A stretch of 61,287 bases of DNA from an uncultured Thermoanaerobaculia bacterium (lineage in GTDB: Bacteria > Acidobacteriota > UBA4820 > DSQY01). Each line of letters opens with the position of its first letter. Within the stretch, counting starts at the first letter, position 1. Positions 3,639-61,245 of the stretch are shown here, piece after piece. Location of the stretch: positions 1-61,287 of the forward strand of contig CAZIBS010000002.1 in the NCBI GenBank assembly GCA_964537405.1. Reading direction: 5' to 3'. Position numbers and translations under genes: made by a program. The notes under the pieces were generated by a model. That model made no database searches. It saw only the letters and a list, made by a program, of their open reading frames with translations, and was not told where the DNA came from.

Positions 3639-6600
3639 ATGAAAAAAATAGTCGCCGTTCTACTGCTGATTGTTGGAATGGGGACCGTACTTTTTGCTTC
3701 CGGAAAAGCGCGTTCCGGCCTTCCTGCGCGCTACCGGCTTCAAAGAGCCGTAGCCAAGGGAGAACTCCGGAAGGTCGAGAATCTGCTGGCCTTGAATCCC
3801 GGCCTGGACGTGTCCGGGTTTCACCCGCCACCGACGATGGTGGCGGCCAGGCGGGGAGATATTGCCATCCTTAACGCGCTGGTCTCCTTTGGCTTTGACC
3901 CTCTCGAAAAGGGAATGCTCAGGATCGGGAAAAACGCCTTCTACGGCACGGCTCTCTGCGCGGCTGCGGGGGAAGGTCACCTCGACGTCGTAAAGTACCT
4001 GGTTGAAGGCTGCAATGCCTCCGTGGATGGACAGGAGTTGATGCCCGACGGCAGGCAGGACGGCTGGACCCCGCTGGAATGGGCGGCCTTCAACGGAAAG
4101 TTGGAGGTGTGTAGGTACCTTCTGAAAACCGGCGCGAGCGTTTCCGTGAAAGACGTGGATGGGCGTACGGCGCTATACGTCGCGGCTGGGAGCGGCAGGC
4201 TTGATGTTGCGCGACTGCTCCTGACCGTCGGCGCGGATGCAGCCGCCAAAGACGTGAACGAAAACACGCCGCTCCAGATGGCGGCATTTAGCGGTTCCGT
4301 CGGCCTCTGCCGCCTTTTACTATCGAAAGCACCGGGGGCCTTGAACGCCGCCGGTAAAAATGGACTGACGCCGCTACACTATGGTGCGGGCGCCGGGAAG
4401 ACGGATGTGTGCGAAGCCTTGCTGGCCGCGGGAGCCAAAGTCAACGCAAGAGACAAGCAAAATCGGACCCCCCTGTATCTGGCCGCCACCGGCGGTTACC
4501 TGGAAACATGCCAAGTGCTCGTAAAACACGGGGCGGACGTCATGGCGGCCTCCGGGTTGGGCCTGACGCCGCTTCACCGGGCCGCGATTTCAGGGAACGG
4601 CGCCCTCTGCGAGTTCCTTCTTACCAAGGGGGCGGATATCAAGGCCAAGAGCAGGTACGGCTATACCCCGCTGGACCTGGCCGCACGGCAGAATAAAACG
4701 GGGGCTCTACGGGTTCTGCTGGTTCACGGTGCGAATGTAAAAGCCACGTCCAGAGAGGGGTTTACTCCTCTTCACGTCGCTATCATGAACAGACATTCGG
4801 CGGAGGCGCGGATGCTGCTTCAGTGGGGCGCCGATCCGAACGCGCGCGACTGGGACGGCTGGACGCCGCTTCACTGGGCCTGCGCACTCTTTAGTGCCAA
4901 ACAGAGCTTTGCTTTCGCAAAGGAGGCAAAAAAGGCTGAGAAAAAGGCCCCGGAGGAGGGAATGGTCCGGGTCCTCATTGCGGCCGGAGCAAAGGTCAAC
5001 GCCGTAACCAATTCGGGTGATACGCCACTGATCCTCGCCGCGTCCTCCGGCGACGAAGAGGGCGTAAGGGTGCTCCTGAAGACCGGTGCCGATCCCAACG
5101 CGGCGAATTCGAGGGGGCGGACGCCGCTTGATATGGCTTACCGTCTTAGGTTCGGAGGCGGCCCTATAGCGAAGATGTTGAAGGATGCCGGCGCCGTTGA
5201 AGTCAGGCCCAGCCTGGCAACGCTGGACAAAAAGCTTTTCAGGGCGATGCAGATGGGGGATCAGGCGGCCTTCGCGGCGGCCCTCGCCGATGGCGCCGAT
5301 CCAAACTCGGAGTACTGGGGAATAAGGGCCCTTAACGAGGCGGTATCATGTGAATCGACCGAAATGAGGCTGCCTGTCTCTGAGCGTAGAAACCGCGATT
5401 TTGTGGACCCGTTACTGGCCGCCGGCGCCGACGTCGACGCCGGTGGCGCGATTGGAAATCCTCCCCTGGAGAATGCGGCGCGGTACGGCAATGTTGCTCT
5501 CGTCAAACTCTTCATCAGGAAAGAGGCCAAGCTCGAAGCGAAAGGCGAGGATGGAGACACTGCCCTATACTCGGCCGCGGCAAGGGGCCACGTAGCCGTT
5601 GTCGGGCTTCTCGCGGAGGCGGGAGCGGACGCCGATGCCAAAGGCGCTCTGGGTTCTACTCCGTTGATGGCTGCGGCCGCCTCCGGTTCGGTGGATACGG
5701 TGAAGTACCTTCTTGACCACGGGGCGGATGTCAATAGCAAGGCATCTTTCGGGTGGTCCGCACTACACGTGGGTGTTTTAGTGCATTCCAGGGCGATTGT
5801 AAGGCTGTTGCTCGACAGGGGCGCGGATCCGGAGGCCATGGCCTCAGGCGGGGCCACTCCGCTTGATTTGGCGGTTTTTTCCGGCGACAATGCCGACGAG
5901 AAACTGCTGCGCGCCAGGGGGGCGCACACGCTTCACAAGGCGAGCATAAACCTCTCCCAGGCCATACGGGAAGGGGACGAAGACAAGCTCAAACGGGCAC
6001 TGGATAACGGCGCTTCCGTGAACCTTGGCGTAATTCCGTTTGTTCCACCGGTCTTCTTGGCAGCCAATGAGGATAAGTGGAAGATGACGGCGGACCTTCT
6101 CCGGAGCGGCGCGGATCCCAATTCGCTGGATTGGCAAAGATCGCCGCTGCTCTTTACACTCGTGCGGTTGAATGCACCGAGGAACCTCCTGGAAATTTGC
6201 CTGGATAAGGGCGCCGACGTAAACACCGGGAACAAAAATGGTTCGACCGTGCTGCTTGAAGCGATCCGGATGGGGCGGCGCGACCTCGTAGAGTTCTTTA
6301 TCCGCGCCGGGGCCGACCTGCTCGTCCGCGATAAGAAGGGACGCTCGGTTCTCGGCCAAAGCTATTACGGCGGTGGATTCGACGCCTCTTTCATCTCTTA
6401 TCTTCTGGACAAGGGCGCCGACATGGAGAACCGCGACAAAGAGGGCAGAACTCCGCTCATCAACTTTACAACCAAAGAGCGCGCCGATCTGCTGAAAGTG
6501 CTCATTGAACGGGGAGCCAACCTGAACGCCGCTGACAATGACGGAAATACGGCTCTTCACTTCGCCGCCCGCGAAGGTTGGCAGGATGGCGTAATGATGC

Positions 6601-9292: not shown

Positions 9293-9514
9293 TCCGTCTC
9301 AGCCCGCCTGAACCGGGGTTCCCGTTGTTGCAACAACGAAGATTCGTCCATTGTAGCGGGTAGATCGCTCCATCATGTCATGCCGGTGTCTATCCGGAAA
9401 CCCGCATGAGAACAAGCGAAGTTGCCGAGCGAGCTTCAAACTTAAGCAACAATGATTTAAGCGTCTGTTTCAGGAAGCGCTTCGTTTTTCTTTTACCAAA
9501 AAGCAGGCGACCGG

Positions 9515-10945: not shown

Positions 10946-11261
10946 GCACCGTCCATCGAAACGAAGGGAAGGTTACGAAGACAGGAACCCTCGTACCCAA
11001 CCCCGGGCTTTTCTCCCGGGGAAAGGGGGCGGTAGATTGTGTGGGGCGTTGTTGCCTTGTACAATCCACCCTCCGGGTAGATTTTACGCACACTCCTGCG
11101 CCGACGCCTTCAACTCATATTGTCGCACAAATCCCGGTCCGGGTGGTGGATCTAAGTTCAGGCCCCCCCCGGCTTTTCAGGAGGCGCCGGTTGTGTCATG
11201 ATGTCGATCCGGGTAGTTAGGTTAAGACGACGCGCGCGGCGTCCTTTTGTAGGAGTCAGGA

Positions 11262-12759: not shown

Positions 12760-12765
12760 TTGCCA

Positions 12766-12946
12766 AAATTCCGGGATTGAAACGTCCGGGGCTTCGAATC
12801 GCCGGCGCTTCTGCTTTGTCAGCCTTTGGCCTCCGGCTCCTCCATGTACGCAGGTACTATTCCGTAGCGGAGGCCCCGGCTTTCGCGCCGGGCGGCCCAA
12901 TCCGCGCGGAACGCGCCTTTCTCCCTCCCTTCGGTCGGGCGGCAGG
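12766..12946 (+). repeat. member of the dispersed intergenic element family (about 181 nt) in an ORF-free convergent gap
   Basis: It starts with AAAATTCCGGGATTGAAACGTCC. It contains GGAACGCGCC (compare GGAACGCGCGCC at 2436-2447) and ends with CCTTCGGTCGGGCGGCAGG, which is related to the CCTCGGTTAGGCGGTGG end motif. It is rich in GC stems, including two hairpins with a CGAAG loop on the reverse strand just downstream. Confidence 0.4.
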
Positions 12947-13896: not shown

Positions 13897-13910
13897 GCCC
13901 CACCTCCTTG

Positions 13911-13926
13911 GTTTCCGTCCGGAAAC
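13911..13926. promoter_or_regulatory. palindrome GTTTCC-N4-GGAAAC at the predicted start of the sigma-54 transcript
   Basis: Perfect 6+6 inverted repeat immediately downstream of the -12 element at 13938. The same arrangement occurs at 28423-28438. Confidence 0.5.
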
Positions 13927-13936
13927 GGCCCTTCTC

Positions 13937-13952
13937 AGCAATCTCCGTGCCT
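13937..13952 (-). promoter_or_regulatory. sigma-54 (-24/-12) promoter
   Basis: The reverse strand reads AGGCACGGAGATTGCT, with GGCACG, 4 nt, then TTGC and GG-N10-GC spacing. It lies about 40 nt upstream of the GTG at 13896. Confidence 0.6.
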
Positions 13953-14051
13953 CCCCGTGCGTTGCACCTACCTGCGGGCTTTCTTGTGCAAGGTACAAAC
14001 GCACGTCCCCTCGTAACCCCCTGCTTTCCCTGACCTTGCGAAAAGCTCCTC

Positions 14052-14068
14052 TTTCCCGAATCGGAAAC
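14052..14068. promoter_or_regulatory. palindrome TTTCC-N6-GGAAAC, candidate enhancer (UAS)
   Basis: Centred about 109 nt upstream of the -24 GG of the 13937-13952 promoter. The counterpart at 28554-28570 sits at a similar distance. Confidence 0.4.
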
Positions 14069-14365
14069 TTCGCTTGTCCTCATCCTGATTCCCGGATGAA
14101 CACTCCTTAGGAAGCCAGTATAATCTCCGCGGCTCCTCTCAACAAGAACGTCGCGGAGTCCCGCAGAATGGTGTCGGATTCCGGACAAGCCGGAATGACG
14201 CCTTTTCCCTTATTGCCTCACCGTCTCCCTGTTGCTCCATACGGTTTTGTTTCTTCTCTTGATAACGTCCATCCTTCCCGTTCCGTATTACGACCGGCCT
14301 TTATGCTACTATGGCCCTTGGATTGACCAGCTACCCGGATCAATCCGGTGGTCGGAAGGCGGCAC

Positions 14366-20245: not shown

Positions 20246-21696
20246 GGGCGAACCTCCTTCATTCCGGTTTGGGCGCTCTTTTTCCACTTTTCCGGCGCCG
20301 CAAAGTAGCGACCGGAGGCAAGTTCGAGGGCGGTTTCAAGTTCCGCCGACTTCGAGCGGAGTTGGTAGACGGCGATCTCCTGCGACCACACGTCATTCTC
20401 CACCCGCGTCAACTTGAGTAGGCTTACGTCCCCGTCGTCGAAGGCCGCCCGGTAGGCCTTTGCAATTCGCGAGAGTCCGGGGAGGAGCCCTTCGGCCACC
20501 GCGAGGCGGCGCCTTGAAATCTTCATGGTCGCCAGCAACCGCGAAACTTCGGCGCGCGCGCAAAAAAGCCTCGCACAGTACTCGTCGTACAGCTTCCTTC
20601 GCGTAGCCCTCTCCCCGGCGATCCGGCCCTGGTTGCGGTCGAAAACCGGTAGACCGATCGACACGGAGTAGCCGTTCGTAACGACGTTGTCGGTGTCTCT
20701 AAGGTGTGTAAGGCCAATAACTATGGCGGGAAACTGGGCACGTATTGCGGCCCGCAACCGTGCGTTCTGGCTGGCGTAGCCTTCCCTGAGCGCCAGGAGG
20801 TCCAGCCGCCGTTCCGGGAGACCGTTCACCAGATCCTTCTCGGGCGGGAGTTTCTTCAAGGCCGGGAGGCCCCGGTTCTCCTGAAGTCGCACCTTTTCGC
20901 CCGGAGACAATCCGAGCAGTCGGTTCAACCCGTGGCGTTCCACATCATTGAGACGAAGAAGAGAGAGATACGCTTGGCGGGAACGTTCCCAGGCTACGCT
21001 CGCCGCCTCGACGCGCTCCCTGGAGAGCGCACCATGGCCCGCCGCATCCCGGACCGCGGTAAGCATTCTCAGGAAGAGCGCTTCTCTCTGCCTCGCCGGG
21101 AGCAGTTCCTTTTTAAGCAAGAGTATGAGGCGAACCTGGAGCTTGGCCGCTTCGGCTACTCGCCATTCTCGCCAGGCTATGGTCAGGCTGATCGATCGAG
21201 CCGCGGCTTGGGCGCCTTTCCTGCGCTGGCTCCTCGTAAACAGGGCTGATACCATCCATTCCAGGCCCATACCGTAGCCGACAACTTTGTTCCGGTAGTT
21301 GCCGCTCGTGGTGGGAGTATCACGGTTGTAGGAGAATACCGGGTTGGGCAGGACTCCGGCTTCGAGCAGTTGGGCCCGGGCAATCCCCCTCGCGTCCCTG
21401 AGAGCCCGAAGCCCCGGGTTTGCCAGAACGGCCATGACGGCCGCCTCGCCGGGCGAGAGTCCATCATCAATATCGAAGTCTATCGGCTTGAGGAGCGGGT
21501 GGCGGATCTTTGCGGCCTCCACCTTTATCGTCGCCATTGAGGGCGGCGACAGAGCCTTTCTTTCCGCCTCTCTGTCGAGGGGCAGAGGATGGTAGGTTGC
21601 ACAACCTACAAGCCATAATACGCACCCGGACGCCAAGAGCACCCGCCCTATGAGGTCCATCTGTTTTTTCCTCCGAGCCATGCCCCAAAAACTCAC
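20242..21696 (-). CDS. TolC/CzcC-family outer-membrane efflux protein
   Basis: 484 aa with a lipoprotein-like N-terminus (LLASGCVLWLVGC) and two OEP-type repeats. It is first in the operon, the czcCBA order. The GTG start is preceded by GGGAGA. Confidence 0.9.
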   Translation of the reverse strand: MSFWGMARRKKQMDLIGRVLLASGCVLWLVGCATYHPLPLDREAERKALSPPSMATIKVEAAKIRHPLLKPIDFDIDDGLSPGEAAVMAVLANPGLRALRDARGIARAQLLEAGVLPNPVFSYNRDTPTTSGNYRNKVVGYGMGLEWMVSALFTRSQRRKGAQAAARSISLTIAWREWRVAEAAKLQVRLILLLKKELLPARQREALFLRMLTAVRDAAGHGALSRERVEAASVAWERSRQAYLSLLRLNDVERHGLNRLLGLSPGEKVRLQENRGLPALKKLPPEKDLVNGLPERRLDLLALREGYASQNARLRAAIRAQFPAIVIGLTHLRDTDNVVTNGYSVSIGLPVFDRNQGRIAGERATRRKLYDEYCARLFCARAEVSRLLATMKISRRRLAVAEGLLPGLSRIAKAYRAAFDDGDVSLLKLTRVENDVWSQEIAVYQLRSKSAELETALELASGRYFAAPEKWKKSAQTGMKEVRP

Positions 21697-21822
21697 TTCA
21701 TCTCCCGAAACACGGTAGAAAGGCGCTTGGGCTCCTGTCTATCGCCGGTCATGGATAATTTCCGAACCGGGAACCCCGCTTCTCTCTCCGGATAGACATA
21801 GGATCCAAGTCCCATGCGAAAA

Positions 21823-21838
21823 TATAATGATAGTGCCA
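21823..21838 (-). promoter_or_regulatory. weak sigma-54 promoter candidate for the RND operon
   Basis: The reverse strand reads TGGCACTATCATTATA. The -24 TGGCAC is perfect, but -12 is TTAT instead of TTGC. It lies about 125 nt upstream of the OMF start. An inverted repeat TTTCC-GAACCG-GGAAC follows at 21759-21774. Confidence 0.25.
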
Positions 21839-22211
21839 TGATGAAGTGAAGCTGATTTTTGCTTCCAGGGGAAAAGGGTAGAGTAGAGAGCCGGAGCGGT
21901 TTTTTAGGGTCGGGCCTAACGGTTGCCGCCCCTTTCGTCCGGCAGTGCCTCACCAACCTCTCCATGTTTGGCTCTAACCCTCCCTCATCAAACCGTGCGT
22001 GCGGTTTTCCCGCACAAGGCTTTCCGATGCCCTTCACCGCAAGGTATGCATATTCGCCAATCCCGCCGTCGTCGACACATTGTAAAGCCCGCACCTGTTG
22101 CATAAGTCCCCGCTTGGAAATCGTTTGTATCCTGCGCCTCCGGTTCTTATCTTGTGTCTCTTACGAAAGTGGGTCCGAACACGCTATTACACATATCCTT
22201 ACAATGGCCCT

Positions 22212-23576
22212 TCACAGGTCGAACTTCTTGAGACGGTAGCGGAGGGTGTCGCGTGTAAGGCCGAGGAGTTTGGCGCTGCGCGTCTGGTTCCCCCCGGTTC
22301 GGCTGAGAGCTTGCTCGATCAGGCTGCGTTCCATCTCTTCGAGTATGACGCCTCCCGGTGGAAGAACGAACACGTGTTCCGCCGACCGGTAGGGATTCTG
22401 GACGAGGATGTCCATGGGAAGGTCGGTTCTGTCGATGAGTTCCTTGTCTTCGAGAATCATTACCTTTTCTATGAGATTCTTTAGCTCACGGATGTTGCCT
22501 GGCCATGGATGCTCGATTAGTACCCGCATCGCGGCGTTGGTTACGCCGCGCGTATTCTTCTTGAACGCCCTGTCAAAGTTACCGATGAAGTACTTCACCA
22601 GAAGCGGGATGTCCTCCGGACGTTCCCTGAGGGGGGGAATCGTAATGGGGATCACCTTCAGTCTGTAGTATAGGTCCTTACGAAAAACGCCCGAAGCGAC
22701 GGCCTGCCTGAGGTCGGCGCTGGAAGCGGCGATGACCCGCACGTCAATGTGTATGTCGCGGGTGCCGCCCGCCCTCTTAAACCTCCGGTCTTCCAGGAAC
22801 CTGAGCAGTTTGAACTGGATGCTCGCACCAATCCGGCCTATTTCGTCCAGGAAGGCCGTTCCCCCGTCGGCGAGTTCGAATAGGCCCTTCTTGGCCGTGG
22901 TCGCCCCTGGAAATACGCCCTTTTCGTATCCGAAGAGTTCATAATCAAGGTTCTCCTCGGACATGGCCGAACAGGCCACGCTCATGAATGGTTTTTTTGT
23001 ACGATCGCTGGCGAAGTGAATCGTGTTAGCCATAAGGTCTTTGCCCGTTCCGCTCTCGCCCTGCAACAGTATGGTTGTGGCTGAAGAAGCAGCTATCTTC
23101 TCAATGAGTTGGAAGATCTCCATCATGCGTGCGTTCTTGCCCACCAAGTTGCCGACGCCGAAGCGTCTTTCCTGGACTTTGCGATAGCGATTCAACTCCC
23201 GCTTGAGCGAGGTGTTTTCGAGGGCTTTCTTCACGCTGATGAGAAGTTCTTCAAATTCGAATGGTTTATTCAGGTAATCGAAAGCGCCGAGCTTCATGGC
23301 TTCGATAGCGCTTTCAACCGTACTGTAAGCGGTCATCATGATAACCGGAAGTGGCTCAAAGTGCGGAAGTATGTTCCTTAAAACCTTCAGCCCATCCATG
23401 TCCGGGAGGCGGTAGTCGAGTAGAACCAGATCCACGTCCTTTTCCTCCAGGGCCTTGAGGGCGTCTTCTCCCCGGTCGGTTTCAAGGGTTTCGTAACCGG
23501 CCTTTTTAAGATGATTAGCCAGAGACCACCGGATCAGCTTTTCGTCCTCGACCAGGAGAATAACTTCCTTTGCCAC
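22212..23576 (-). CDS. sigma-54-dependent response regulator (NtrC family: REC-AAA+-Fis HTH)
   Basis: REC (DLVLLDYRLPDMDG), Walker A (GESGTGKD) and a C-terminal HTH (QTRSAKLLGLTRDTLRYRLKKF) are present. The sigma-54 contact loop reads GVFPGA instead of GAFTGA. The GTG start overlaps the kinase stop. Confidence 0.95.
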   Translation of the reverse strand: MAKEVILLVEDEKLIRWSLANHLKKAGYETLETDRGEDALKALEEKDVDLVLLDYRLPDMDGLKVLRNILPHFEPLPVIMMTAYSTVESAIEAMKLGAFDYLNKPFEFEELLISVKKALENTSLKRELNRYRKVQERRFGVGNLVGKNARMMEIFQLIEKIAASSATTILLQGESGTGKDLMANTIHFASDRTKKPFMSVACSAMSEENLDYELFGYEKGVFPGATTAKKGLFELADGGTAFLDEIGRIGASIQFKLLRFLEDRRFKRAGGTRDIHIDVRVIAASSADLRQAVASGVFRKDLYYRLKVIPITIPPLRERPEDIPLLVKYFIGNFDRAFKKNTRGVTNAAMRVLIEHPWPGNIRELKNLIEKVMILEDKELIDRTDLPMDILVQNPYRSAEHVFVLPPGGVILEEMERSLIEQALSRTGGNQTRSAKLLGLTRDTLRYRLKKFDL

Positions 23577-28329: not shown

Positions 28330-28422
28330 GCCAGAATCCTTATAAAAGCAAATTGTAACAGAGTTTAATACCCCGGTGCAAAGAGAATGCGGGGTTAAAG
28401 CAATTTAAGGAGCTTGTAGCTG

Positions 28423-28438
28423 GTTTCCATCCGGAAAC
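28423..28438. promoter_or_regulatory. palindrome GTTTCC-N4-GGAAAC at the predicted start of the sigma-54 transcript
   Basis: Same position relative to the -12 element as 13911-13926. Confidence 0.5.
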
Positions 28439-28448
28439 AGCTCTTTTC

Positions 28449-28464
28449 CGCAAGCTCCGTGCCT
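28449..28464 (-). promoter_or_regulatory. sigma-54 (-24/-12) promoter
   Basis: The reverse strand reads AGGCACGGAGCTTGCG with GG-N10-GC spacing. It lies about 120 nt upstream of the carboxyltransferase ATG at 28329. Confidence 0.6.
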
Positions 28465-28553
28465 GCCTGTGCGTTGCACGCAGACAGGTCAATCCGCGGG
28501 CGTCCTTGTGCGACGCATTGAAATACGCCTCCACGCAAGTCTTTGATTTCCTT

Positions 28554-29059: not shown

Positions 29060-29295
29060 GGGGTTAGTTTATCGTAGGTGCATGTTCCACGCAAGAGCCG
29101 CCCCAAAATCCCGCGATGGGTGATCGAACGGCCGGGAAAGACTCTGCGGTCCATGGTTTTGTGCCTATGGCGCTTCACCCCAAGGGATTGGGGGCCTTCG
29201 GGCCGGAGGCCAAGAAAGCGCCGAGGGTGGGGTGGGAATGGCCCTCCCCGTTCCAGGAGATGCTTATTTCCCCGGGCCGCGATTAAAAGACGCAG

Positions 29296-29318
29296 ACGTT
29301 TCAATCGCGGAATTCGGG
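29296..29318 (-). repeat. TTCC-N5-TGAAAC family motif forming the 5' arm of a 13-bp hairpin
   Basis: The reverse strand reads CCGAATTCCGCGATTGAAACGTC. CGCGATTGAAACG pairs with CGTCTTTTAATCGCG just downstream. Further downstream, TTGGCCTCCGGC and CCCTCGG resemble parts of the element at 12766-12946. Confidence 0.35.
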
Positions 29319-29359
29319 CCGCCCGGGGAATTTGCATCGTCTCTCGCCGGGGGCGGTAT

Positions 29360-31024
29360 TCATGGAAGGTAGTCTCCCAGCTCATGGCCGTCCACCAAAC
29401 CTCTTCGCGCCGCGTTAAGAACCCGTTCACCCAGATTGGTGCCCCCGGATTCGGCGATCCGACGGTGCAACTCTTCGGCGGTAGGTTCATCCTCGAATAA
29501 TCCCCTGCTCTCCTCGCCCAGGGGAATCCATTCCAGTATCTCAACCGAGTGGAGCGACTCCCACGTGAGGCACTTTTCGCATCCCTGCCGGGTAAAGAGG
29601 GAGTAAGCCCCCCCCGAACGACCGGAAACCCGGACGGGAAGCTTGCAGTCGGGGCAGAGAGCCGGAAGTGAAGCCACGGTCAGGATGCCCTTGAGTACGC
29701 CCGCCCGCAGGGGCGAACGGAAGTTGTTTCTCCACAGCCAGCGGAGGGCCGCAAGGGCATCGGGCTGGTGCAGGACGGCCAGGACACGGGTATGAGAGGC
29801 TGCCAACATGATCAACTCCATGGACATCCTCTCCTTGACGGGAAAGCAGGTGAAGAGTTCCGGATCCTGCTTCAGGGCCGTGGCGATGAGTTCCGGCCAC
29901 GTGGCGCCCTCCTCCCGCGAAACCTCCACCTGGGATGTGTTTTCAATGGCCAGCATGGAGTATTCCTCAAGCGCAACGGCTGCTTGGCCTCTGCTAGCGA
30001 GGTGGCTCAACAACGAATAGTAAACCTGGTACATGCCGGGTCCCGGCGGGCCGCTCATGATTACCAACCCGGGTGTTTTGTGCAGGGCCTTATTCAACGA
30101 CGCTCCTTCGGCCTCTCCCAGTTGGCCCGCCAGTTTCGTCCAGTTCCTGCTGAACACCTTCTCGTCGTAAAGCGTCAGGGTGTATCTTGTTCCCTGGAGG
30201 GTGGGAATCCCCTTTACGTAGAGAGTCATGAAACGGGAGCCGGCCTGGAGTCTCACGCGCCCCTCGATGCGTCCCCCTCTCCGGTGTTCCCGAATTCGTG
30301 CCAGCTCTCTCAGCAGGGCGTCCATCTCCTCCCGCTTCTTGGGGTGGAGCCCGAAGCGGTCCTCCACCTTGTCGGGCCTCTTGAAAGATATCTTAAGGTT
30401 TTTCTCGCCGGGGTTGATATAGAGGGTCCTGCAACCCGTTCTGATAGCCTCGGCAAGAATGGTCCTTAACCAATCGGTAGCGGAGGAATCCGGTTTAAGC
30501 ACGGACCAGTGGAGAGGCCTGATTCTGGGTGAACGGGAAGAAAGGATAAAGAGGTGGTCACCCGAGAGGCTCCTTACAACGCCGGGGTCCTTGGCGACTC
30601 CGTAGAAGCGTTCGAGGGCGTTGACGATCGTCTCTCGGGGACAGACCACCGGATCGATGGAAAGCCCCGTTAACTCCTCTATGGCGGGAATAATGCTGGG
30701 ATTGTCGAGGTCGGCGATGGCAACGGTCAGCACGTCTCCCCGTCTCTCCACCGGAATCACCTGGTAAAACTGGGCGATATTGGCGGGAAGAGTATCCAGA
30801 ACGGATTCGTCCGTAATCCAGCGGTTGAGGTTGTACGGGATGAGTCCCATCGACTCCCGCAGGAATTGGCTTAAGCGCTCCACGTTTACGTAACCCATGC
30901 GGATCAGGTGGTAGCCAAGCCGCCCACCCTGGCTTTTTTGGACCTCAAGGGCGCTGTTAAGCTCCTCTTCCGTCAGCAGCCCCTCCCTGAGAAGGAGCGT
31001 ACCCATTGCGGTGTGTTCGCTCAT
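29360..31024 (-). CDS. PilB/GspE-family protein with intact MshEN (c-di-GMP-binding) N-domain and degenerate ATPase domain
   Basis: Tandem 24-aa MshEN motifs (MGTLLLREGLLTEEELNSALEVQ, spacer KSQGG, then RLGYHLIRMGYVNVERLSQFL). Walker A reads GPPGPGMY instead of GPTGSGKT. The Walker B region reads FTCFPVKE instead of MVGEIRD. CxxC...CxxC is retained (CPDCK...CEKC). Confidence 0.85.
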   Translation of the reverse strand: MSEHTAMGTLLLREGLLTEEELNSALEVQKSQGGRLGYHLIRMGYVNVERLSQFLRESMGLIPYNLNRWITDESVLDTLPANIAQFYQVIPVERRGDVLTVAIADLDNPSIIPAIEELTGLSIDPVVCPRETIVNALERFYGVAKDPGVVRSLSGDHLFILSSRSPRIRPLHWSVLKPDSSATDWLRTILAEAIRTGCRTLYINPGEKNLKISFKRPDKVEDRFGLHPKKREEMDALLRELARIREHRRGGRIEGRVRLQAGSRFMTLYVKGIPTLQGTRYTLTLYDEKVFSRNWTKLAGQLGEAEGASLNKALHKTPGLVIMSGPPGPGMYQVYYSLLSHLASRGQAAVALEEYSMLAIENTSQVEVSREEGATWPELIATALKQDPELFTCFPVKERMSMELIMLAASHTRVLAVLHQPDALAALRWLWRNNFRSPLRAGVLKGILTVASLPALCPDCKLPVRVSGRSGGAYSLFTRQGCEKCLTWESLHSVEILEWIPLGEESRGLFEDEPTAEELHRRIAESGGTNLGERVLNAARRGLVDGHELGDYLP

Positions 31025-31088
31025 CCGGGTGTTATCTTTTCATCTTTAGGACAACTCCGTTGGAACCCACGGCGGTGATACGAAGCAA

Positions 31089-31529
31089 TCAGCGCCTGAA
31101 GGATATTTTGGTCCACCGTCCCGGTACGTCTTTCCATTGAACCGGCTCCCCCCCGTCGAGTGTATAGCTTCCCGCCCCCCTGAAGTGGGCCTTGCCGAAG
31201 CCTTTGACCCTTATCCCCAGGTTCCATCCGCGGATCTCCAGGTGGGCGCCTGGGCCGATGCTGTCTACGCTGCCCTTGAAGTGGTAGTAATTGCCTCCAT
31301 CCGCGGTTTTCTTGAGCTTCCCCCACTTCCCGTGGATCTTGAGAAAGAGGTTCGACCTGTTCTTGATAACCAGCGTTCCCCTGCCCGAGAGGTGTACCTT
31401 TCCCGTGCCCCAAAAACGAATCCAACCGTGGCTGCCATGGGCAATAAGAAGGTGCGCCCGGCCGGCGGCCAATGGCGCCAGGCACACCAACAGGACAACA
31501 ACGGCGATCGCCAAACGCTTTCTTTTCAT
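31089..31529 (-). CDS. small secreted protein, function unknown
   Basis: 146 aa with signal peptide MKRKRLAIAVVVLLVCLAPLAAG. It is Gly/Lys/His-rich and beta-like. Its ATG overlaps the upstream TAA by 1 nt. Confidence 0.7.
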   Translation of the reverse strand: MKRKRLAIAVVVLLVCLAPLAAGRAHLLIAHGSHGWIRFWGTGKVHLSGRGTLVIKNRSNLFLKIHGKWGKLKKTADGGNYYHFKGSVDSIGPGAHLEIRGWNLGIRVKGFGKAHFRGAGSYTLDGGEPVQWKDVPGRWTKISFRR

Positions 31530-31951
31530 TAGCCTGCTCCCATTCTCATCAATACTTTCTTAATGCAAGTATCTTGAACGACCATGAGCCCGCCACCGGA
31601 GGCTATCCCGGCGGCAACGTCATTGGACACGCCCTCCTGCATCCAAAGTGCCTTCGCCCCCGTAGAAACGGCCTCCCCGGCTATGGGCGCCACGGACTCG
31701 GAGCGGCGAAAGACATCCACGATATCCACCGCTTTGCCGTAAACCGCCAGGCTTGGATAGCACCGTTCTCCCAAAACTTCTTCCAGTTTTGGATTAATGG
31801 GAATCACCCTGTAACCACGGGCCTGTAGGAACGAGGCCACGTCATGGCTGGCTCGTTCGGGTTTGTTCGAGATTCCAACAACGGCAATCGTTACCGCATT
31901 CCGCAGCAACGTTCGGATTTTTTCGTTCACGGCGCCCTCCATCAACGCCAT
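31529..31951 (-). CDS. CoA-binding domain protein (YccU/YneT-like)
   Basis: TIAVVGISNKPERASHDVASFLQARGYRVIPINP is typical of the family. I chose the start at 31951 (MALMEG...). The longer ORF, to 32005, begins inside a repeat motif. Confidence 0.8.
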   Translation of the reverse strand: MALMEGAVNEKIRTLLRNAVTIAVVGISNKPERASHDVASFLQARGYRVIPINPKLEEVLGERCYPSLAVYGKAVDIVDVFRRSESVAPIAGEAVSTGAKALWMQEGVSNDVAAGIASGGGLMVVQDTCIKKVLMRMGAG

Positions 31952-31993
31952 TGTAATAGTCCCGGATGAAAAGGGGAAGTGAAAACTCCAACC

Positions 31994-32008
31994 TGAATCC
32001 GCCATCTA
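31994..32008 (-). repeat. exact 15-mer TAGATGGCGGATTCA (third copy)
   Basis: Identical to 2459-2473 (+) and 61004-61018 (+). Confidence 0.85.
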
Positions 32009-32067
32009 TATCTCTGCGGATCGTCCAGGAGCACCAACTCCCGGTTTAGGTGGTGGGTTCAGGCCAG

Positions 32068-32244
32068 CCATAATCCACCGCCTAACCGAGGACCGAGGGC
32101 AGCGGGGAAGGCTTAGATGCCAGGCGCCGAGACGATTTGAGCGCAGGCGTAGTAGCGCTACGTTGAGCATCAAATCGGCGAAAGCAACACCGCAGATGAG
32201 CCTTATCCCGCAGTACGAATCCCGGTGCAGGTGGTGAATTATGG
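32068..32244. repeat. 177-nt rod-folding intergenic element, copy 1 (MITE-like element or structured RNA; strand undetermined)
   Basis: 174 of 177 nt are identical to 58542-58718. It has 16-nt terminal inverted repeats and internal nested stems. Confidence 0.85.
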
Positions 32245-32257
32245 CCAGACCATCCCC

Positions 32258-32286
32258 TTGCAATTTCAGCCGTTTCCGTGTACAAT
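32258..32286 (+). promoter_or_regulatory. sigma-70 promoter candidate for acpP
   Basis: TTGCAA, 17 nt, then TACAAT, ending 30 nt upstream of the acpP ATG. Confidence 0.5.
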
Positions 32287-32316
32287 CCCTGACTCGTATG
32301 ATGGAGGAATACTACG

Positions 32317-32553
32317 ATGGACATCGAACAGAAAGTTAGGAGCATCATTGCTGACCAGTTGAGCGTCGACGAAGCCGAAATCAAGGCCGAGGCTTCTTTC
32401 ATCAACGACCTTGGAGCGGACTCTTTGGATACCGTTGAATTGATTATGGCCCTCGAAGAAGAGTTCGGTATCGAGATTTCCGACGATGACGCGGAAAAGA
32501 TTCAAACCGTCAAGGCGGCTATCGACTACATCAACAGCCACGTAGAAAAGTAG
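32317..32553 (+). CDS. acpP: acyl carrier protein
   Basis: 78 aa with the phosphopantetheine site [19 protein letters not shown]. Confidence 0.95.
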
Positions 32554-38975: not shown

Positions 38976-39106
38976 CCAAACCCTCCTTGAGATAGACCTG
39001 TTATTCCTGCTTTCCACCGCGCCGGTTTTTTTATTCCCACCCTCAGGGAACAATGATACTACTTCAATGCTTCACGCACCGGAATGACGCCCTCCGGTTG
39101 CTACTA

Positions 39107-39122
39107 TTGGCATTAACCTTGC
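39107..39122 (+). promoter_or_regulatory. sigma-54 (-24/-12) promoter
   Basis: TGGCATTAACCTTGCA has GG-N10-GC spacing with TGGCAT at -24 and TTGCA at -12. It lies 36 nt upstream of the ATG at 39158. Confidence 0.6.
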
Positions 39123-39157
39123 ATCTTCTGTATCCTTTTGGTTGGAGGTGTGCCAAT

Positions 39158-40588
39158 ATGGCTCATGGGACAATTGTCATCCTGGAAGACGAAGCCGAAA
39201 ATCTCAGGAGCCTCACGCGCGCCCTGGAAAAGGTGGGCTACGATGTTCACGGCTACAGGGATCCCAGGAAAGGCATGGCTTTTCTTGACGACCACCGGAA
39301 TGTCGATATCGTTCTGACCGACATCAGAATGCCGGCCATGGACGGCATGGCCGTACTGAAGCACGTCAAGGAAAACCGGCCCGGCCTGCCCGTGCTTCTT
39401 ATAACCGCTTTCGGTTCCGTCGAGTCCGCCGTGGGAGCGATGAAGGTAGGAGCGGACGACTACCTGGCGAAACCGATCGACCTCTACGAACTCAGGCGCC
39501 GCGTCGAGGCACTCGTTGAAAAGCACCGCCTTGCCATGCGGGTCGATGAACTTCAAGCAAGGTTGGACGAACGCTTCGGCTTTGAGAACATCGTCGGAAC
39601 GAGTCGCCCCATGCAGGAACTCTTCCAGCAGATAAAGATGGTGGCTCCTACCAGGGCTACGGTTCTCATCAACGGTGAGTCGGGAACCGGCAAGGAACTG
39701 ATAGCCAACGCCATCCACCACAACTCCGACCGCAAGCGCAATCGCTTCCTGCCGATCAACTGCGCCGCGATTCCCGCCACCCTCATGGAGAGCGAACTAT
39801 TCGGCCACGAAAGGGGCTCTTTTACGGGCGCGGAGAAAACCCACCCCGGTAAGTTCGAACAGGCCGACCGCGGAACGCTCTTCCTGGACGAGATCGGGGA
39901 GTTGCCCATCGGCCTGCAGGCCAAATTGTTGCGAGTCCTTGAAGAGCGCATGGTTACCCGCGTGGGAAGTTCCCACCCCATACCGGTGGACGTCCGCATA
40001 GTTACCGCGACCAATCGCAATATCGAGGAAATGACGGCCGCCGGGGATTTTCGCAAAGACCTGTTTTACCGTCTCAAGGTCGTCGAGCTGCGCATCCCTC
40101 CTCTCAGGGAAAGAAAGGAAGACATTCCCCTCCTGGCCCACAGCTTCCTGGAGCAGTTAAACCGGGAGCACGGCAGAACTATAGAGAAAATTTCACCGGA
40201 GGCGCTCTCCGCCCTGGTCGCCTACCCCTGGCCCGGAAACGTAAGAGAGCTGAGAAACGTGATCGAGAGAACGGTTGTCTTCTGCCCGGAAAACGAGATA
40301 AGAATGACGCACCTTCCCGTTGAACTGCAAAGCGGCGTCGCCTTGACCACCCACGCCGGTCTACCTTCCCTACACGCGGCCGCCTCCACCGGTTTTGACG
40401 TCAGAGGCGAGGTGGTGCCGCTGGAAGAGATGGAAAGGCGCGCTATCTTACGAGCCCTTGAAGAAACCGGCGGGAACAAGACCCGGGCCGCCCGCCTGCT
40501 CGGCATCGGCCTGAGAACACTCCACCGTAAACTAAAGCAGTACCGGTATGATAACGCAACCATAAATTCAGAGAGGAGTATGCAATGA
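39158..40588 (+). CDS. sigma-54-dependent response regulator (NtrC family), no adjacent kinase
   Basis: REC (DIVLTDIRMPAMDG), Walker A GESGTGKE, GSFTGA loop and Fis-type HTH (KTRAARLLGIGLRTLHRKLKQY). The ATG at 39158 follows GGAGGTG. Confidence 0.95.
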   Translation: MAHGTIVILEDEAENLRSLTRALEKVGYDVHGYRDPRKGMAFLDDHRNVDIVLTDIRMPAMDGMAVLKHVKENRPGLPVLLITAFGSVESAVGAMKVGADDYLAKPIDLYELRRRVEALVEKHRLAMRVDELQARLDERFGFENIVGTSRPMQELFQQIKMVAPTRATVLINGESGTGKELIANAIHHNSDRKRNRFLPINCAAIPATLMESELFGHERGSFTGAEKTHPGKFEQADRGTLFLDEIGELPIGLQAKLLRVLEERMVTRVGSSHPIPVDVRIVTATNRNIEEMTAAGDFRKDLFYRLKVVELRIPPLRERKEDIPLLAHSFLEQLNREHGRTIEKISPEALSALVAYPWPGNVRELRNVIERTVVFCPENEIRMTHLPVELQSGVALTTHAGLPSLHAAASTGFDVRGEVVPLEEMERRAILRALEETGGNKTRAARLLGIGLRTLHRKLKQYRYDNATINSERSMQ

Positions 40589-45766: not shown

Positions 45767-46003
45767 CGCCTTCGTCGAGAGGAGCCGAGAGCGAATTGTA
45801 TCTTTCTTTTTTGAAGTTAAATAAGCCAAGAGCCTCCTCCCGCCGAAGCAGCGCTCCCGCGCGCGAACCATCGCGCACGGCTTGGTTTGGCGGGGAAGAA
45901 ACCGGACACGGGACTTCTTGCCGCCGGGGTTTATCCGTTCTTCGGAGGGGCGACGCTCGTGCGGGATCACTGGCCATGTCGTTCATATCAGGATAGGTGG
46001 GGA

Positions 46004-48361
46004 ATGAACCGGAGACTGACTAAGACATTGATCGTTCTTCTTGCGCTCGTCGCGGCCGTCACTCCGGTGGCCCAAACCGTCGGCGTAAAACCCGGGAAAG
46101 TCACAAAAAAAAAGGTTCTTATCGAAAAAATCGTCCTTGAAGGCAATGAGCGCTTAACCCAGAAAGCCTTCTTGGCGCTTACGAGCCTGCGTGTCGGTGA
46201 ACCGTACGACAAGGCCCGGGTTATTAAAGCGTTCCACAAAATCTGGGAGTCCGGTCTTCTCGACAATCTATCCATCGACAGCAAACCGGGAAAGACCGGG
46301 GTCATACTCACCTTCCACATCAAGGAACGCCCCATCCTGGCCTCCATTGACTACACGGGGAGCAAAACGCTGACCAGCACAACCGTCCTGGATAAGATCA
46401 AAGAGAACAAGGCCAACATCAAGTCGGGCACCGTTCTGGACTACGCCAAGATCAAGAAGCTGGAGGCGGCACTGCGCTTCATGGCGGCGGAAAAGGGGTA
46501 CCCCGACGCTCTGGTGACCTCCAAGCTCCAATCCATGGGGCCTGCCCAGGTTGCCCTTACCATAAACGTGAAGCAAGGACCAAAGGCCAGAATAGAGAAG
46601 GTTAAGTTCATGGGCGTACACGCCTTTTCCCAGCGCAAACTGCGCCTCACTCTCAAGAAAACCCGCTCTCACTGGTGGCTTTCGTGGGCCACGCGCCACG
46701 ACATCTACTCCGAGAGCAGGTATTACAAAGACGTGAAAAAACTTCGCAAACTTTACGAATCCAGGGGCTACCTCGACGTGGATATCGGCGATCCAATTAT
46801 AGACAGCCACATGAACAGGAAGAAAACGAAAAAGTGGCTGGTACTGACGATCCCCATCACCGAAGGCGTTTCCTACAAGTTGGGCACGATATCCTTCAAA
46901 GGGAACCACGTTTTCACAAGTGATGAACTCCACAAGATGATCCTGCTCAAAAAAGGAAAAACTCTGAACAAACTAGCCATCGACTACGTGCGCAAAGGTA
47001 TCGAAGCCAGGTACGGAGAAAAGGGCTACATTTACGCCACCGCCACCCCCATCTTTGATAAACACCCCGGCAAGAAGATCGCCAACGTTACCTTTTTAAT
47101 CACCGAGGACCATGTTTACTACGTAAACAGGATTGAGTTCTACGGCAACACCTCCACCCGCGACTACGTACTCAGGCGGGAGATGGAGATCTACGAACAG
47201 GAACTCTTCAACTACGTAAAGTACAAGCGTGGACTCTACCTCTTAAAACAGCGGGCTATCTTCACGATCAAGAAGGATCCGATTATTACGAAGGTTCCCA
47301 ACACAAACACGGTTAACATCAAGATCGTGGGAGAGGAGGCCAATAAGAACGAGTTGCTTTTCGGCGGTGGTTACGGTGGAATTAACGGTTTCTTTATCTC
47401 CGGCTCTTTCAAGACCTACAACTTCATGGGAATGGGGACGACCCTCTCCCTCAACGCGGAGGTGGGGAAATACCAAAAGCTGTACTCCATAAATTACTCC
47501 GACCCGTGGCTCTTCGGAAAACGCATAGGGGGCAACTTCTCCGTCTTCAATTCCCAATTGGACTACCTGGAGTTCAAACAGGGATCAAAGGGCGGTTCCA
47601 TGGGGATTTCCTTTCCCCTTGGGGACTTTGCCTACTGGACCGTCGGCTACCGTTATGACCGCTCCGACGTTACGGGTATCAGCACCAATTACATCAGCCC
47701 CGACTACGAGGCGTACCTGAACAACTCCGCTACCTCGTCGGTATTGCTGGGCATCGGTTTCAACACCGTCAACAATCCCTTCAGACCGATGATGGGTTCG
47801 TCCGCCTCCTTGAACGCCACCGTTGCCGGGGGTCCCGTAGGCGGCGATAATGATTTCATTAAGTCGACTTTTGACGGCTCGTTTTACCTACCTACCTTCA
47901 GGAAACAGAATCTGGCCTGGCGGCTGAGCATGGGATACATTACCGCCTACGACGGGCACCCGATTCCCATCTGGGAACGATTCTTCCTCGGCGGACAAAG
48001 CTCACTGAGGGGCTTCGCCATCCGCTCAATCTATCCAATGACTAAAGACGCGCGCTACTTCCTTGATCCCTACACGGGAACTATCGAAGGCGGAAACCGC
48101 TTCTACCTGCTTAATAACGAGTACGTCTTTCACCTTACGGAGTATGTGGACGTGGCGCTATTCATGGACATCGGCAACACCTACCACGAGCGGCAGAAGA
48201 TGCAGCTGTCGAATTACAGGGCCAATGCGGGTGTTGAACTGCGCTTCTTCATACCCACCTTCAACGTACCTCTGCGACTAATTTATGCTTCGAATCTCAA
48301 ACCACGGCCTAACGATGACTTCAGCAGCTTTCAAATCTCCATCGGTCTGACGTTCCAATGA
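46004..48361 (+). CDS. bamA: outer-membrane protein assembly factor BamA
   Basis: Signal peptide from the ATG at 46004 (MNRRLTKTLIVLLALVAAV), POTRA repeats and a C-terminal 16-strand barrel. It is followed by skp-lpxD-fabZ-lpxA, the conserved context. Confidence 0.95.
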   Translation: MNRRLTKTLIVLLALVAAVTPVAQTVGVKPGKVTKKKVLIEKIVLEGNERLTQKAFLALTSLRVGEPYDKARVIKAFHKIWESGLLDNLSIDSKPGKTGVILTFHIKERPILASIDYTGSKTLTSTTVLDKIKENKANIKSGTVLDYAKIKKLEAALRFMAAEKGYPDALVTSKLQSMGPAQVALTINVKQGPKARIEKVKFMGVHAFSQRKLRLTLKKTRSHWWLSWATRHDIYSESRYYKDVKKLRKLYESRGYLDVDIGDPIIDSHMNRKKTKKWLVLTIPITEGVSYKLGTISFKGNHVFTSDELHKMILLKKGKTLNKLAIDYVRKGIEARYGEKGYIYATATPIFDKHPGKKIANVTFLITEDHVYYVNRIEFYGNTSTRDYVLRREMEIYEQELFNYVKYKRGLYLLKQRAIFTIKKDPIITKVPNTNTVNIKIVGEEANKNELLFGGGYGGINGFFISGSFKTYNFMGMGTTLSLNAEVGKYQKLYSINYSDPWLFGKRIGGNFSVFNSQLDYLEFKQGSKGGSMGISFPLGDFAYWTVGYRYDRSDVTGISTNYISPDYEAYLNNSATSSVLLGIGFNTVNNPFRPMMGSSASLNATVAGGPVGGDNDFIKSTFDGSFYLPTFRKQNLAWRLSMGYITAYDGHPIPIWERFFLGGQSSLRGFAIRSIYPMTKDARYFLDPYTGTIEGGNRFYLLNNEYVFHLTEYVDVALFMDIGNTYHERQKMQLSNYRANAGVELRFFIPTFNVPLRLIYASNLKPRPNDDFSSFQISIGLTFQ

Positions 48362-48546
48362 GCAAAGACTCGCGCGCCTTTCTATATCTCAACCTGTCGA
48401 ATTACAGGGCCGACGCCGGTGTTGAACCGCGCTTCTTCATACCCACTTTCAACGTACCTCTGAGACCAATCTATGCTTCGAATCTCAAACCACAACCTAC
48501 CGATGACTTCAGCCACTTTCAAATCTCCATCGGTCTAACGTTTTAA
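48358..48546 (+). pseudogene. tandem duplicate of the bamA 3' end, readable as a 62-aa ORF
   Basis: 48393-48542 matches 48206-48354 at roughly 90 percent identity by hand count. The ATG overlaps the bamA stop (ATGA). The product repeats the last ~50 BamA residues with two Leu-to-Pro changes and ends in ...GLTF. Confidence 0.6.
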
Positions 48547-58423: not shown

Positions 58424-58541
58424 TTTCTACCTCCATACGGCCGCCACGATGGCCGTCTTTGATTATTCTACCGCATCCGCTATTGGTCCCGTTAGAATTA
58501 TACGGAATAAAGTGGACCCCGTTGTCAAGACAAGGGGTCCA

Positions 58542-58718
58542 CCATAATCCACCGCCTAACCGAGGACCGAGGGCGGCGGGGAAGGCTTAGATGCAAGGCG
58601 CCGAGACGATTTGAGCGCAGGCGTAGTAGCGCTACGTTGAGCATCAAATCGGCGAAAGCAACACCGCAGATGAGCCTTATCCCGCGGTACGAATCCCGGT
58701 GCAGGTGGTGAATTATGG
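58542..58718. repeat. 177-nt rod-folding intergenic element, copy 2
   Basis: 174 of 177 nt are identical to 32068-32244, in the same orientation. Confidence 0.85.
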
Positions 58719-59607: not shown

Positions 59608-60873
59608 TTACTTTTTTACGTCTCCGGTTGCCGCGCCGTGAAGTTTAACCTCCACCTTGTTTTCCAGGTGGTCGTAGTAATCCTTGAGGACGGCTATGAC
59701 TTCGGGCTTGGAAAACTCCTTGGGCACCGGTTTCCCTTCGCTCATCAGTTTCCTCAGCATCGTGCCGGAAAGAAGCAGTCTGGCGCCGCTCCTGTACTCG
59801 CCGTTCTCGTCGATTACGGCCTTCTCGTCGTGGGGACAGGTTTTCATCGACGCCATGGAACCGCACTTGAAGCAGTAGAAGGTCCAGTCCATACAAAGGG
59901 GCTGGAGCTTCAACGATCCGCGGGGAATTTCGTGGAAGATACCCTGGGCGTCGAAGGGTCCGTAGTAGTCGCCTACTCCGGCGTGGTCACGACCGACGAT
60001 GAGGTGGGAGCAACCGTAGTTCTGGCGAAAGACGGCGTGGAGAAGCGCTTCCCTGGGACCGGCATAGCGCATTTCGAGGGGGTATCCGCCCTGGATGACG
60101 CGCTCCTTGCGGAAGTAGTTGTTCACGAGGGCGTCTATCGCCTTGACCCTTACCTTGGCGGGAATGTCGCCCGGCTTCAACTTGCCTACGAGCTGGTGAA
60201 TGTAGACTCCATCGCAAACCTCGATGGCTATCCAGGCAAGGTAGGCGTGGGAGTTGTGCATGGGGTTGCGGAGTTGCAATGCCGCCACCGTGGTCCACCC
60301 CCGTTCATCGAACATCTTTCTGGCTTCGGCGGGGCGTTGGTAGATCTTGCCGAACATCTCAGGATAGTAGGATTCGGAAAGAACCTTGACGGAACCGGCC
60401 AGATTCACCTCGGCCTGGGCCATAACCTTTTGTACGCCGGGGTGCGCTTCGTCGGTGGTCTTGAAGACCTGACGGCATTCGTGGGCCTTGTCGATAGTGT
60501 ATTTCTCGGTGACCCTCATGGTTCCCATGAGGGTGTTGGTCTCGGTGTCCAGGAGGGCCACCTCCTCGTTGGGAGCGATGGAATCGGCGAGGGTCTTCTC
60601 GGCCGACAGTGTTATGGGAATAGGCCAGAAGAGGTCGTTCTTGGCGGGCATGGTGAAGGTGTCGCAGCACCCCAGCCAGTCGGCTTTGCCCATGAATCCA
60701 TCAAGAGGGGTAAAAGCGCCGATGCCCATCATAATGAGGTCTCCCGTCTCCCGGCTGGTAAGCGGAATCGTCTTCATGCCCGCGGTTTTTCCGATCTCTT
60801 CCTCCCGTGCCCGACCCTCAAGAAGAAGCGGTTTCAGCGTGTCGCTGCCGTGTGGAGCTACCAGTTTACTCAT
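59608..60873 (-). CDS. sat: sulfate adenylyltransferase (ATP sulfurylase)
   Basis: [13 protein letters not shown] and GRDHAGVG motifs are present. I chose the ATG at 60873, preceded by GAGGAGG ([16 protein letters not shown]...). Confidence 0.9.
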
Positions 60874-60989
60874 CCATAACCTCCTCGAAATGAGCCTACA
60901 TGGGTATCCAATGATCCTACGCGGGTGGGCTGTGGACATCCACCCATTCTTGTACATCGTACTACACCGCTTTCAATAAAACACGCCGG

Positions 60990-61020
60990 CCTCGGTCCCC
61001 GGCTAGATGGCGGATTCAAG
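60990..61020 (+). repeat. isolated copy of the element-family 3' motif
   Basis: CCTCGGTCCCCGGCTAGATGGCGGATTCAAG. It contains the exact 15-mer and resembles CCTCGGTCCTCGGTTAG of the 177-nt elements. Confidence 0.4.
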
Positions 61021-61245
61021 TGAAGAATTCGGTGTTGTGTCCCGAATGGCGCTAACTCAAGGTTTCTTGTATTTGTTTCTATGGGGAATCTCTTTGAATT
61101 CGGTTCTTGAAAGGTTTGGTGCCGGGGATTACGACGCCCGGACGGGAAGACGGCTTCCGATAGATTCGGGGCCTGCCACGGAGTTCAGCGCCTTCAACCC
61201 ACCGCTCTTTCGGGTTATACTTCGGGCGGAGGGACGCCGGTGTTC

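Follow-up and report, generated by a model that had tools for sequence, protein, structure and literature searches.

Two intergenic regions of the 61,287-nt stretch of DNA analysed here (the window) carry almost the same 177 nt, and the question that this locus raises is what kind of sequence the pair represents. The initial annotation left three options: a MITE-like non-autonomous element, a structured RNA of about 180 nt reminiscent of 6S RNA, and a cis-regulatory module co-oriented with the downstream gene. The existence of a multi-copy family with inverted ends and target duplications supports the first of these, and we consider it highly probable that the pair belongs to a lineage-restricted, GC-rich MITE family that is moved in trans by a DDE transposase. 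The 177-nt pair itself is two young copies of a gene-less mobile element and not a new RNA gene.

The 177-nt pair and its fold

The two copies, at 32068-32244 and 58542-58718, are direct repeats of 177 nt, both on the plus strand, to which the repeat finder assigned 98% identity; base-by-base comparison leaves only three differences (32101 A/G, 32121 C/A and 32212 A/G). Alignment, repeat finder and base comparison all agree with the earlier description of a 177-nt twin with three substitutions and unrelated flanks. The plus strand of the unit folds at -83.8 kcal/mol, compared with -54.6 +/- 4.2 kcal/mol for dinucleotide shuffles (z = -7.0, with 0 of 200 shuffles folding as well), and the minus strand at -79.9 kcal/mol (z = -5.55), which bears out the long imperfect rod that had been proposed for either strand. 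In the predicted fold the 16-nt terminal inverted repeats are paired with one C.A mismatch and one G.T pair, the GATTTGA/TCAAATC pairing and the CGTAG-N5-CTACG apex are both present, and two of the substitutions, at element positions 34 and 145 (32101 and 32212), are opposite one another in a 1x1 internal loop, with A.A for copy 1 and G.G for copy 2, and are non-compensatory as had been claimed. The rod exists because the element is nearly a palindrome. Its G+C content is that of the genome, 58%.

Copy 1, with the ends CCATAATCC...GAATTATGG, occupies the intergenic region of a divergent gene pair: on one side is a CoA-binding protein gene (31529-31951, minus strand; coordinates from a gene call in an independent contig), on the other acpP-fabF, with acpP at 32317-32553 (plus strand). 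A sigma-70-like site, TTGCAA-17-TACAAT at 32258-32286, is found outside the copy on the acpP side, and the effects of the element on its neighbouring genes are probably neutral. Copy 2 has an aldehyde dehydrogenase gene and yajQ, both on the minus strand, as its neighbours: it is 122 nt upstream of the start of the former (58420) and 346 nt downstream of the stop of the latter (59065). Each of its two junctions was confirmed separately in an independent contig (L036 and L040), the continuity between them being known from the window sequence alone.

Further members within the window

At least five members or fragments of the family, and three relatives that are more diverged, are present in the window. 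The left-end motif AATCCRCCRYCTAACCGAGGACCG has four matches in it against 0.00 expected, and the right-end motif likewise has four, three of them within family elements and one at 11133-11152. Closest to copy 1 is a 72-nt mini-member of an older subfamily at 31992-32063 (CCTGAATCCGCCATCT...GGTGGTGGGTTCAGG, -32.6 kcal/mol), which has the same plus-strand orientation and sits head-to-tail 4 nt upstream with CCAG between the two. Its right and left ends had previously been taken for an inverted partial copy at 32044-32066 and a separate 15-mer at 31994-32008, a reading that can now be abandoned. A diverged member had also been noticed at 2353-2475; there is indeed one there, but its extent has to be corrected to 127 nt, 2349-2475 on the minus strand, again in a divergent intergenic region, with the left end CCTGAATCCGCCATCTAACCGAGGACCG and a right end of a second type, ...CAATCGCGGAATTTGGGG.

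The remaining relatives are more degraded or smaller. A degenerate left-end fragment, CTTGAATCCGCCATCTAGCCGGGGACCGAGG, occupies 60985-61020 (minus strand) just upstream of a sulfate adenylyltransferase-like gene (59608-60957, minus strand), and 11063-11152 (plus strand, AATCCACCCTCCGGGTAG...AATCCCGGTCCGGGTGGTGGATC) is probably a strongly diverged member with uncertain boundaries. Two mini-hairpins of about 45 nt carry the second end type, one at 12765-12810 (plus strand, CCAAAATTCCGGGATTGAAACG...CGAATCGCCGG) directly after a terminator-like hairpin and the other at 29279-29319 (minus strand, CCCGAATTCCGCGATTGAAACG...TTAATCGCGG). Extrapolation from these eight or more members, fragments and relatives in 61 kb gives a rough figure of several hundred copies per genome.

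Constant ends and variable interiors

Every complete member has imperfect terminal inverted repeats of ~25-27 nt when its left end is compared with the reverse complement of its right end. The left-end consensus is CC[A/T][T/G]AATCC[A/G]CC[A/G][C/T]CTAACCGAGGA; a close variant of this sequence, reverse-complemented, makes up the right end. Alignment of the ends reveals that the two change together between subfamilies. Between these constant ends the interiors are palindromic and variable, such that members range from 44 to 235 nt, and all those with both ends fold as a hairpin. None has coding capacity, the ORFs that run across the elements being only low-GC3 artefacts.

The smallest forms are minimal hairpins of 44 nt (L001 and L030), followed by the single 72-nt form in the window and by 83-nt forms in which the core is replaced by a CCTGCCTGCAGCAGGCAGG palindrome (L004, L011, L015 and L029). 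Forms of 104 nt (L002) and 117 nt (L004/L019) are without the tip of the rod. The 177-nt form is complete in the two window copies, L003 and L025, and is cut by a contig end or truncated on the right in L007, L022, L023 and L026, whilst forms of 196 and 235 nt contain extra CCTGCCTGC...GCAGGCAGG modules (L024, L027 and L028). The interiors look like the products of internal deletion or of the addition of palindromic modules: loss of the hairpin tip would give the shorter rods of 44, 72, 83, 104 and 117 nt, and gain of modules the longer rods of 196 and 235 nt. The conserved left arm, at ~36 nt, is longer than typical transposase-binding ends and sits in the loop of the 44-nt minimal hairpins, which could point to some other constraint.

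A separate motif, GAATGGCGCTAACT[T/C]AAG, comes after a truncated right end in both L026 (~205-240) and L027 (~2560-2593) and has another occurrence beside the left-end fragment of the window (~61041-61060). Possibly it marks one end of some other element, which inserts into members of the family or next to them.

Distribution among metagenome contigs

A scan of metagenome contigs for the left-end motif returned 31 contigs, corresponding to ~27 distinct sites once duplicates were removed, and all but one of the 31 are VAPA-VAPD contigs. Other contigs were fetched from the VAPA/VAPC assemblies and from SRA runs SRR6439358-60 by means of the window's flanking proteins. L003 and L032-L037 align to the window at 99.7-100% identity, and L040, L041 and L085 encode window proteins exactly. 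Judged by these matches, they and nearly all family-bearing contigs belong to the window's own population. A diverged member, L002 (Ga0114934), derives from a different project, and the family is therefore not confined to a single sample series. In the 185,579 GTDB species representatives the left-end pattern had no match, and the right-end pattern had 43 single matches, scattered over unrelated phyla and showing no other resemblance to the family in blastn, which we treat as chance; no family matches were found in IMG/VR viral contigs.

The 177-nt copies differ from one another at 3-10 of 177 positions, a near-identity indicative of recent activity. Contig ends fall inside the element in all four cases for ACP, in both YajQ cases shown and in the one for aldehyde dehydrogenase, which is the behaviour of a high-copy repeat in short-read assembly. 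Searches through ACP, YajQ, aldehyde dehydrogenase, CoA-binding protein and FabF recovered no empty site, as they led only to contigs of the same population, all broken in the repeat; reconstructed empty sites read ...GGGTTCAGGCCAGACCATCCC... for copy 1 and ...GAACGCTGGTATCGG... for L015. The closest other FabF proteins, from Acidobacteriota MAGs, are 73% identical with none between 73% and 100%, so there is no sister genome with which to compare, and the host accordingly represents a sparsely sampled, uncultured lineage that is placed tentatively in the Acidobacteriota.

Contig L003 is 99.75% identical to window positions 29118-32310, yet six of the ~8 differences fall inside the 177-nt element. 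These differences are likely to result from repeat collapse or consensus-building in short-read assembly, and the sequences of elements in such contigs should therefore not be over-read.

Target-site duplications

The flanks of the elements are informative as to how they arrived where they are. The initial annotation had pointed out CCAG on both sides of copy 1 and nothing comparable at copy 2; both observations are correct, with CCAG at 32064-32067 and 32245-32248 flanking copy 1, and TCCA facing TTTA at copy 2. It had also objected to a MITE-like element that no consistent target-site duplication was present, an objection that disappears when more copies are considered. The young CCATAATCC...AATTATGG subfamily provides eight complete insertions at distinct sites. 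We compared their flanks, and four of the eight have flush direct repeats, of 4 bp in three cases (CCAG, CTGG and TTTC) and of 5 bp in one (GATGA); the flanks of L029 match at three of four positions. When left flanks were paired with the right flanks of other sites there were 0 matches in 56, and the binomial probability of at least four duplications in eight is ~2e-8. The duplicated sequences differ from site to site and are thus not part of the element. Such variable flush duplications are the signature of staggered-cut insertion by a DDE-type transposase. At the other half of the young insertions, copy 2 and three further sites, the duplication is absent, possibly because copies have recombined, because it has decayed or because short-read contigs join the wrong flanks.

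Prokaryotic MITEs have been defined as elements of <500 bp with terminal inverted repeats, direct repeats in the younger copies and stable stem-loops (PMC10969869). The family agrees with this definition, in that it consists of non-coding members below ~500 bp that have terminal inverted repeats in common, are duplicated at their target in young copies and occur as near-identical copies at unrelated loci. We infer which kind of transposase is involved, and how it moves the element, from what is seen directly, a repeat family with inverted ends, target duplications and size variants that is spread over multiple intergenic sites in mixed orientation. A DDE-type transposase, encoded elsewhere in the genome, would bind both ends of the element, excise or copy it, and insert it at staggered cuts of 4-5 bp, leaving a short target duplication. 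Mobilisation in trans is inferential too, movement itself being deduced from the target duplications together with the near-identical copies at unrelated loci.

The same duplications bear on a different kind of mobile palindrome, a REP/REPIN-like family in BIME-like clusters. Such a family would owe its spread to a RAYT-type (Y1/HUH) transposase with single-stranded hairpins as its substrate. The elements are, as this would predict, abundant, extragenic, G+C-rich and fully palindromic, they have a CGTAG motif at the apex, minimal hairpins of 44-45 nt exist (L001, L030 and window 12765-12810 and 29279-29319), and in four cases (window copy 1, L024, L026 and L027) among the 15 young left junctions neighbouring members are 3-5 nt apart. 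However, to our knowledge HUH transposases leave no target duplication, whereas half of the eight young insertions have flush duplications of 4-5 bp that differ between sites. Furthermore the left flanks have no common tetranucleotide, which site-specific insertion of the IS200/IS605 type would need, members reach 235 nt with distinguishable left and right ends, and no Y1 transposase domain was detected in the 20 window ORFs scanned. It would seem quite improbable, then, that the family spreads in this manner.

Structured RNA and regulatory roles

The stability of the rod, which is far beyond that of shuffled sequences, speaks for the idea that the family is conserved for its fold, either as a structured non-coding RNA gene in multiple copies or as an RNA hairpin that acts in cis, such as an attenuator, RNase III site or insulator. 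The paired ends also co-vary between subfamilies, but this is equally expected of inverted repeats bound by one transposase. Rfam gave no match at the element, either at gathering thresholds across the whole window or at E<=10 for 31950-32320, and no promoter-like or terminator-like site, T-tract terminators included, is common to the copies. The strand that folds better also varies across 17 members, the plus strand being favoured in 2349-2475, L004- and the mini-element and the minus strand in L027a, L030b and L015, and the G.U counts show no strand bias, the strand richer in G.U pairs likewise changing from one member to the next. The interiors of members from 44 to 235 nt are arbitrary, being freely deleted or replaced with the ends alone constant. 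The ~180-nt 6S-like RNA that had been suggested finds no support.

Many copies do lie 50-130 nt upstream of a gene start and in the same orientation; co-orientation with a gene start had been the basis of the proposed cis-regulatory module. Across the sites, though, the right-hand side of the element faces a co-oriented gene start in 12 cases and a gene end in seven, which is not significant, and the left-hand side is equally mixed, so this proposal finds no support either. The target duplications moreover show insertion as DNA. Taken as an RNA gene or RNA-level signal in its own right, the family is thus very unlikely to be correctly explained, and a MITE family remains the preferred reading.

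The search for a parent element

A MITE moved in trans requires a transposase from elsewhere, and the earlier statement that the window contains none holds for its 20 least obvious ORFs, in which a Pfam scan detected no transposase or RAYT/Y1 domain. An autonomous element with matching ends was found neither in the window (20 ORFs scanned) nor in the 31 contigs, which together make a small search space. Many accepted MITE families have no known parent.

One candidate adjoins the family itself. In three contigs (L014, L020 and L021) fragments of a single IS1634-like transposase gene, with a match to NCBIfam NF033559 at E = 0.003, have left ends of the family upstream of them or fused to them, and the family could on this basis be regarded as deletion derivatives of that IS1634-family insertion sequence. 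The insertion sequence in L014, however, has a left end of its own, CTCATCTTGAACAGTTG, ~180 nt before the ATG and ~280 nt inside the family end, and this end agrees with the two, CTTTTCTTCTACAGTTG and CTCATCTTCTACAGTAG, that bound a complete relative in L038, but bears no relationship to the ends of the family. The fusions are, in addition, situated at contig ends and at the hairpin apex, places of frequent short-read mis-joins. IS1634 was accordingly rejected as the parent, its own ends, known from L014 and from the L038 relative reached by protein search, being different and inside the family end; such a derivation is extremely unlikely.

The L038 relative, from an unrelated ENA contig, is a complete IS1634-family insertion sequence (3828-5745) with the ends given above, inserted in a type I restriction-modification locus, where it interrupts a YgjP-like gene. 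Two ORFs, of 176 and 364 aa, were called for its transposase, probably because of a frameshift or sequencing error. The IS1634-like transposase gene of L014 and L020 is for its part interrupted by a ~45-nt tandem repeat, GATCATTCGGGGCTGTAAGCCCCTCCTGCGGATTGATGGTTGGTTTG, at positions that differ between the two (L014, reverse complement, about 700-774 of a printed stretch; L020, 2660-2810), and this adds a further kind of repeat to those of the population.

A second lead comes from the IS1380 family, whose range of target duplications in ISfinder is compatible with 4-5 bp. Its member ISEcp1 has the inverted repeats CCTAGATTCTACGT (IRL) and ACGTGGAATTTAGG (IRR) and produces 5-bp direct repeats (PMC6061673, PMC7864471). 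The ends of our family similarly begin with CC and finish with GG, and its right ends ...GCGGAATTTGGGG, ...GGTGGATTCAGG and ...GGTGAATTATGG resemble the ISEcp1 IRR, at best in 11 of 13 positions, a resemblance that spans ~13 nt only and is a lead rather than a test of membership. No IS1380-type transposase was, on the other hand, found in the window or the retrieved contigs, and we would regard an IS1380-type parent as a hint that is suggestive only.

Insertion beside resident copies

The arrangement upstream of acpP, where the duplicated CCAG of copy 1 directly abuts the end of the older mini-element, is not an isolated case. Four of the 15 distinct young left junctions have the end of an older member 3-5 nt away, head-to-tail in window copy 1, L026 and L027 and head-to-head in L024. 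By a rough estimate well below 1% of intergenic positions belong to family ends, and four adjoining junctions in 15 thus constitute a strong enrichment, with the proviso that the contigs are short-read assemblies in which some adjoining junctions could be artefacts. A BIME-like mosaic had been described at this locus; the pattern fits, but its composition is different, as whole family members have been inserted side by side. In the proposed mechanism new copies would land preferentially next to the ends of resident copies, and the mosaic upstream of acpP would exist because of this.

A perfect 8-bp hairpin, GGACCCCGTTGTCAAGACAAGGGGTCC, is located at 58513-58539, 2 nt from the left end of copy 2, which may therefore also have been inserted beside a pre-existing palindrome.

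Whether the family is more than selfish DNA can be asked in two ways. The transposase may target resident termini and so build head-to-tail arrays in which the spacer is the target duplication. Alternatively the 36-nt left arm, including the loop motif CTAACCGAGGACCGAGG of the 44-nt hairpins, may have been co-opted as a protein-binding or RNA-level signal, in which case mobilisation might involve a transposase type not yet linked to MITEs. That one or other of these holds is unlikely.

Comparison with known repeat families

The family is a new one of a well-known kind and no new class of system. Like Correia (CREE/NEMIS) elements in Neisseria, RUP in Streptococcus pneumoniae, ERIC/IRU in enterobacteria and QMITE2 in Coxiella, it consists of ORF-less elements of <500 bp with terminal inverted repeats, short duplications in young copies, many intergenic copies, size variants that arise by internal deletion and a long stable hairpin when transcribed. 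Its sequence is unrelated to those of Correia, RUP, ERIC and QMITE2 as judged without a reference library. Correia and RUP elements duplicate TA, in contrast to the 4-5 bp of variable sequence duplicated here. MITEs are described as typically AT-rich (PMC10969869), whereas the G+C content of this family is 58%, equal to that of the genome, and the nested palindromic modules inside it, the preference for resident ends and the lack of an identified parent insertion sequence set it further apart from known MITEs. With REP, BIME and REPIN sequences it has in common that abundant G+C-rich extragenic palindromes cluster into mosaics, but it differs from them in its target duplications, its distinct left and right ends, its lengths of up to 235 nt and the absence of any RAYT seen.

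The discovery thus adds a G+C-rich and highly modular MITE family from a poorly sampled lineage, and the apparent preference for resident ends and the missing parent element are points for specialists in mobile elements. For those who annotate genomes the family is a trap, both for RNA-gene and for regulatory-motif prediction, and it fragments the short-read assemblies of this uncultured lineage, with mis-joins possible in the longer contigs.

Other features of the window

Several further features were encountered in the window. Domains V-VI of a group II intron (Rfam RF00029) are recognised at 21878-22024 on the minus strand with 45.2 bits (gathering score 40), where a TolC-like gene and a response regulator gene are separated by ~500 nt. 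A reverse transcriptase ORF is absent from this site, an overlapping 136-aa ORF (21693-22103) having no Pfam match, and the feature looks like an ORF-less intron or the truncated 3' end of one.

A second repeat family, unrelated to the first, comprises a 59-nt unit at 13909-13967 and 28421-28479 (86% identity) and a 43-nt inverted pair at 9386-9428 and 14061-14103. The minus strand of the 59-mer contains GGCACGGAGATTGC, which resembles a sigma-54 -24/-12 promoter; sigma-54 activators are encoded in the window at 39053-40588 and probably at 22212-23576.

Finally, a direct repeat of 149 nt with 91% identity is present at 48206-48354 and 48394-48542, the two copies being spaced 188 nt apart. It lies at and just past the 3' end of an 824-aa ORF (45887-48361) and may be a local duplication of the end of that ORF.
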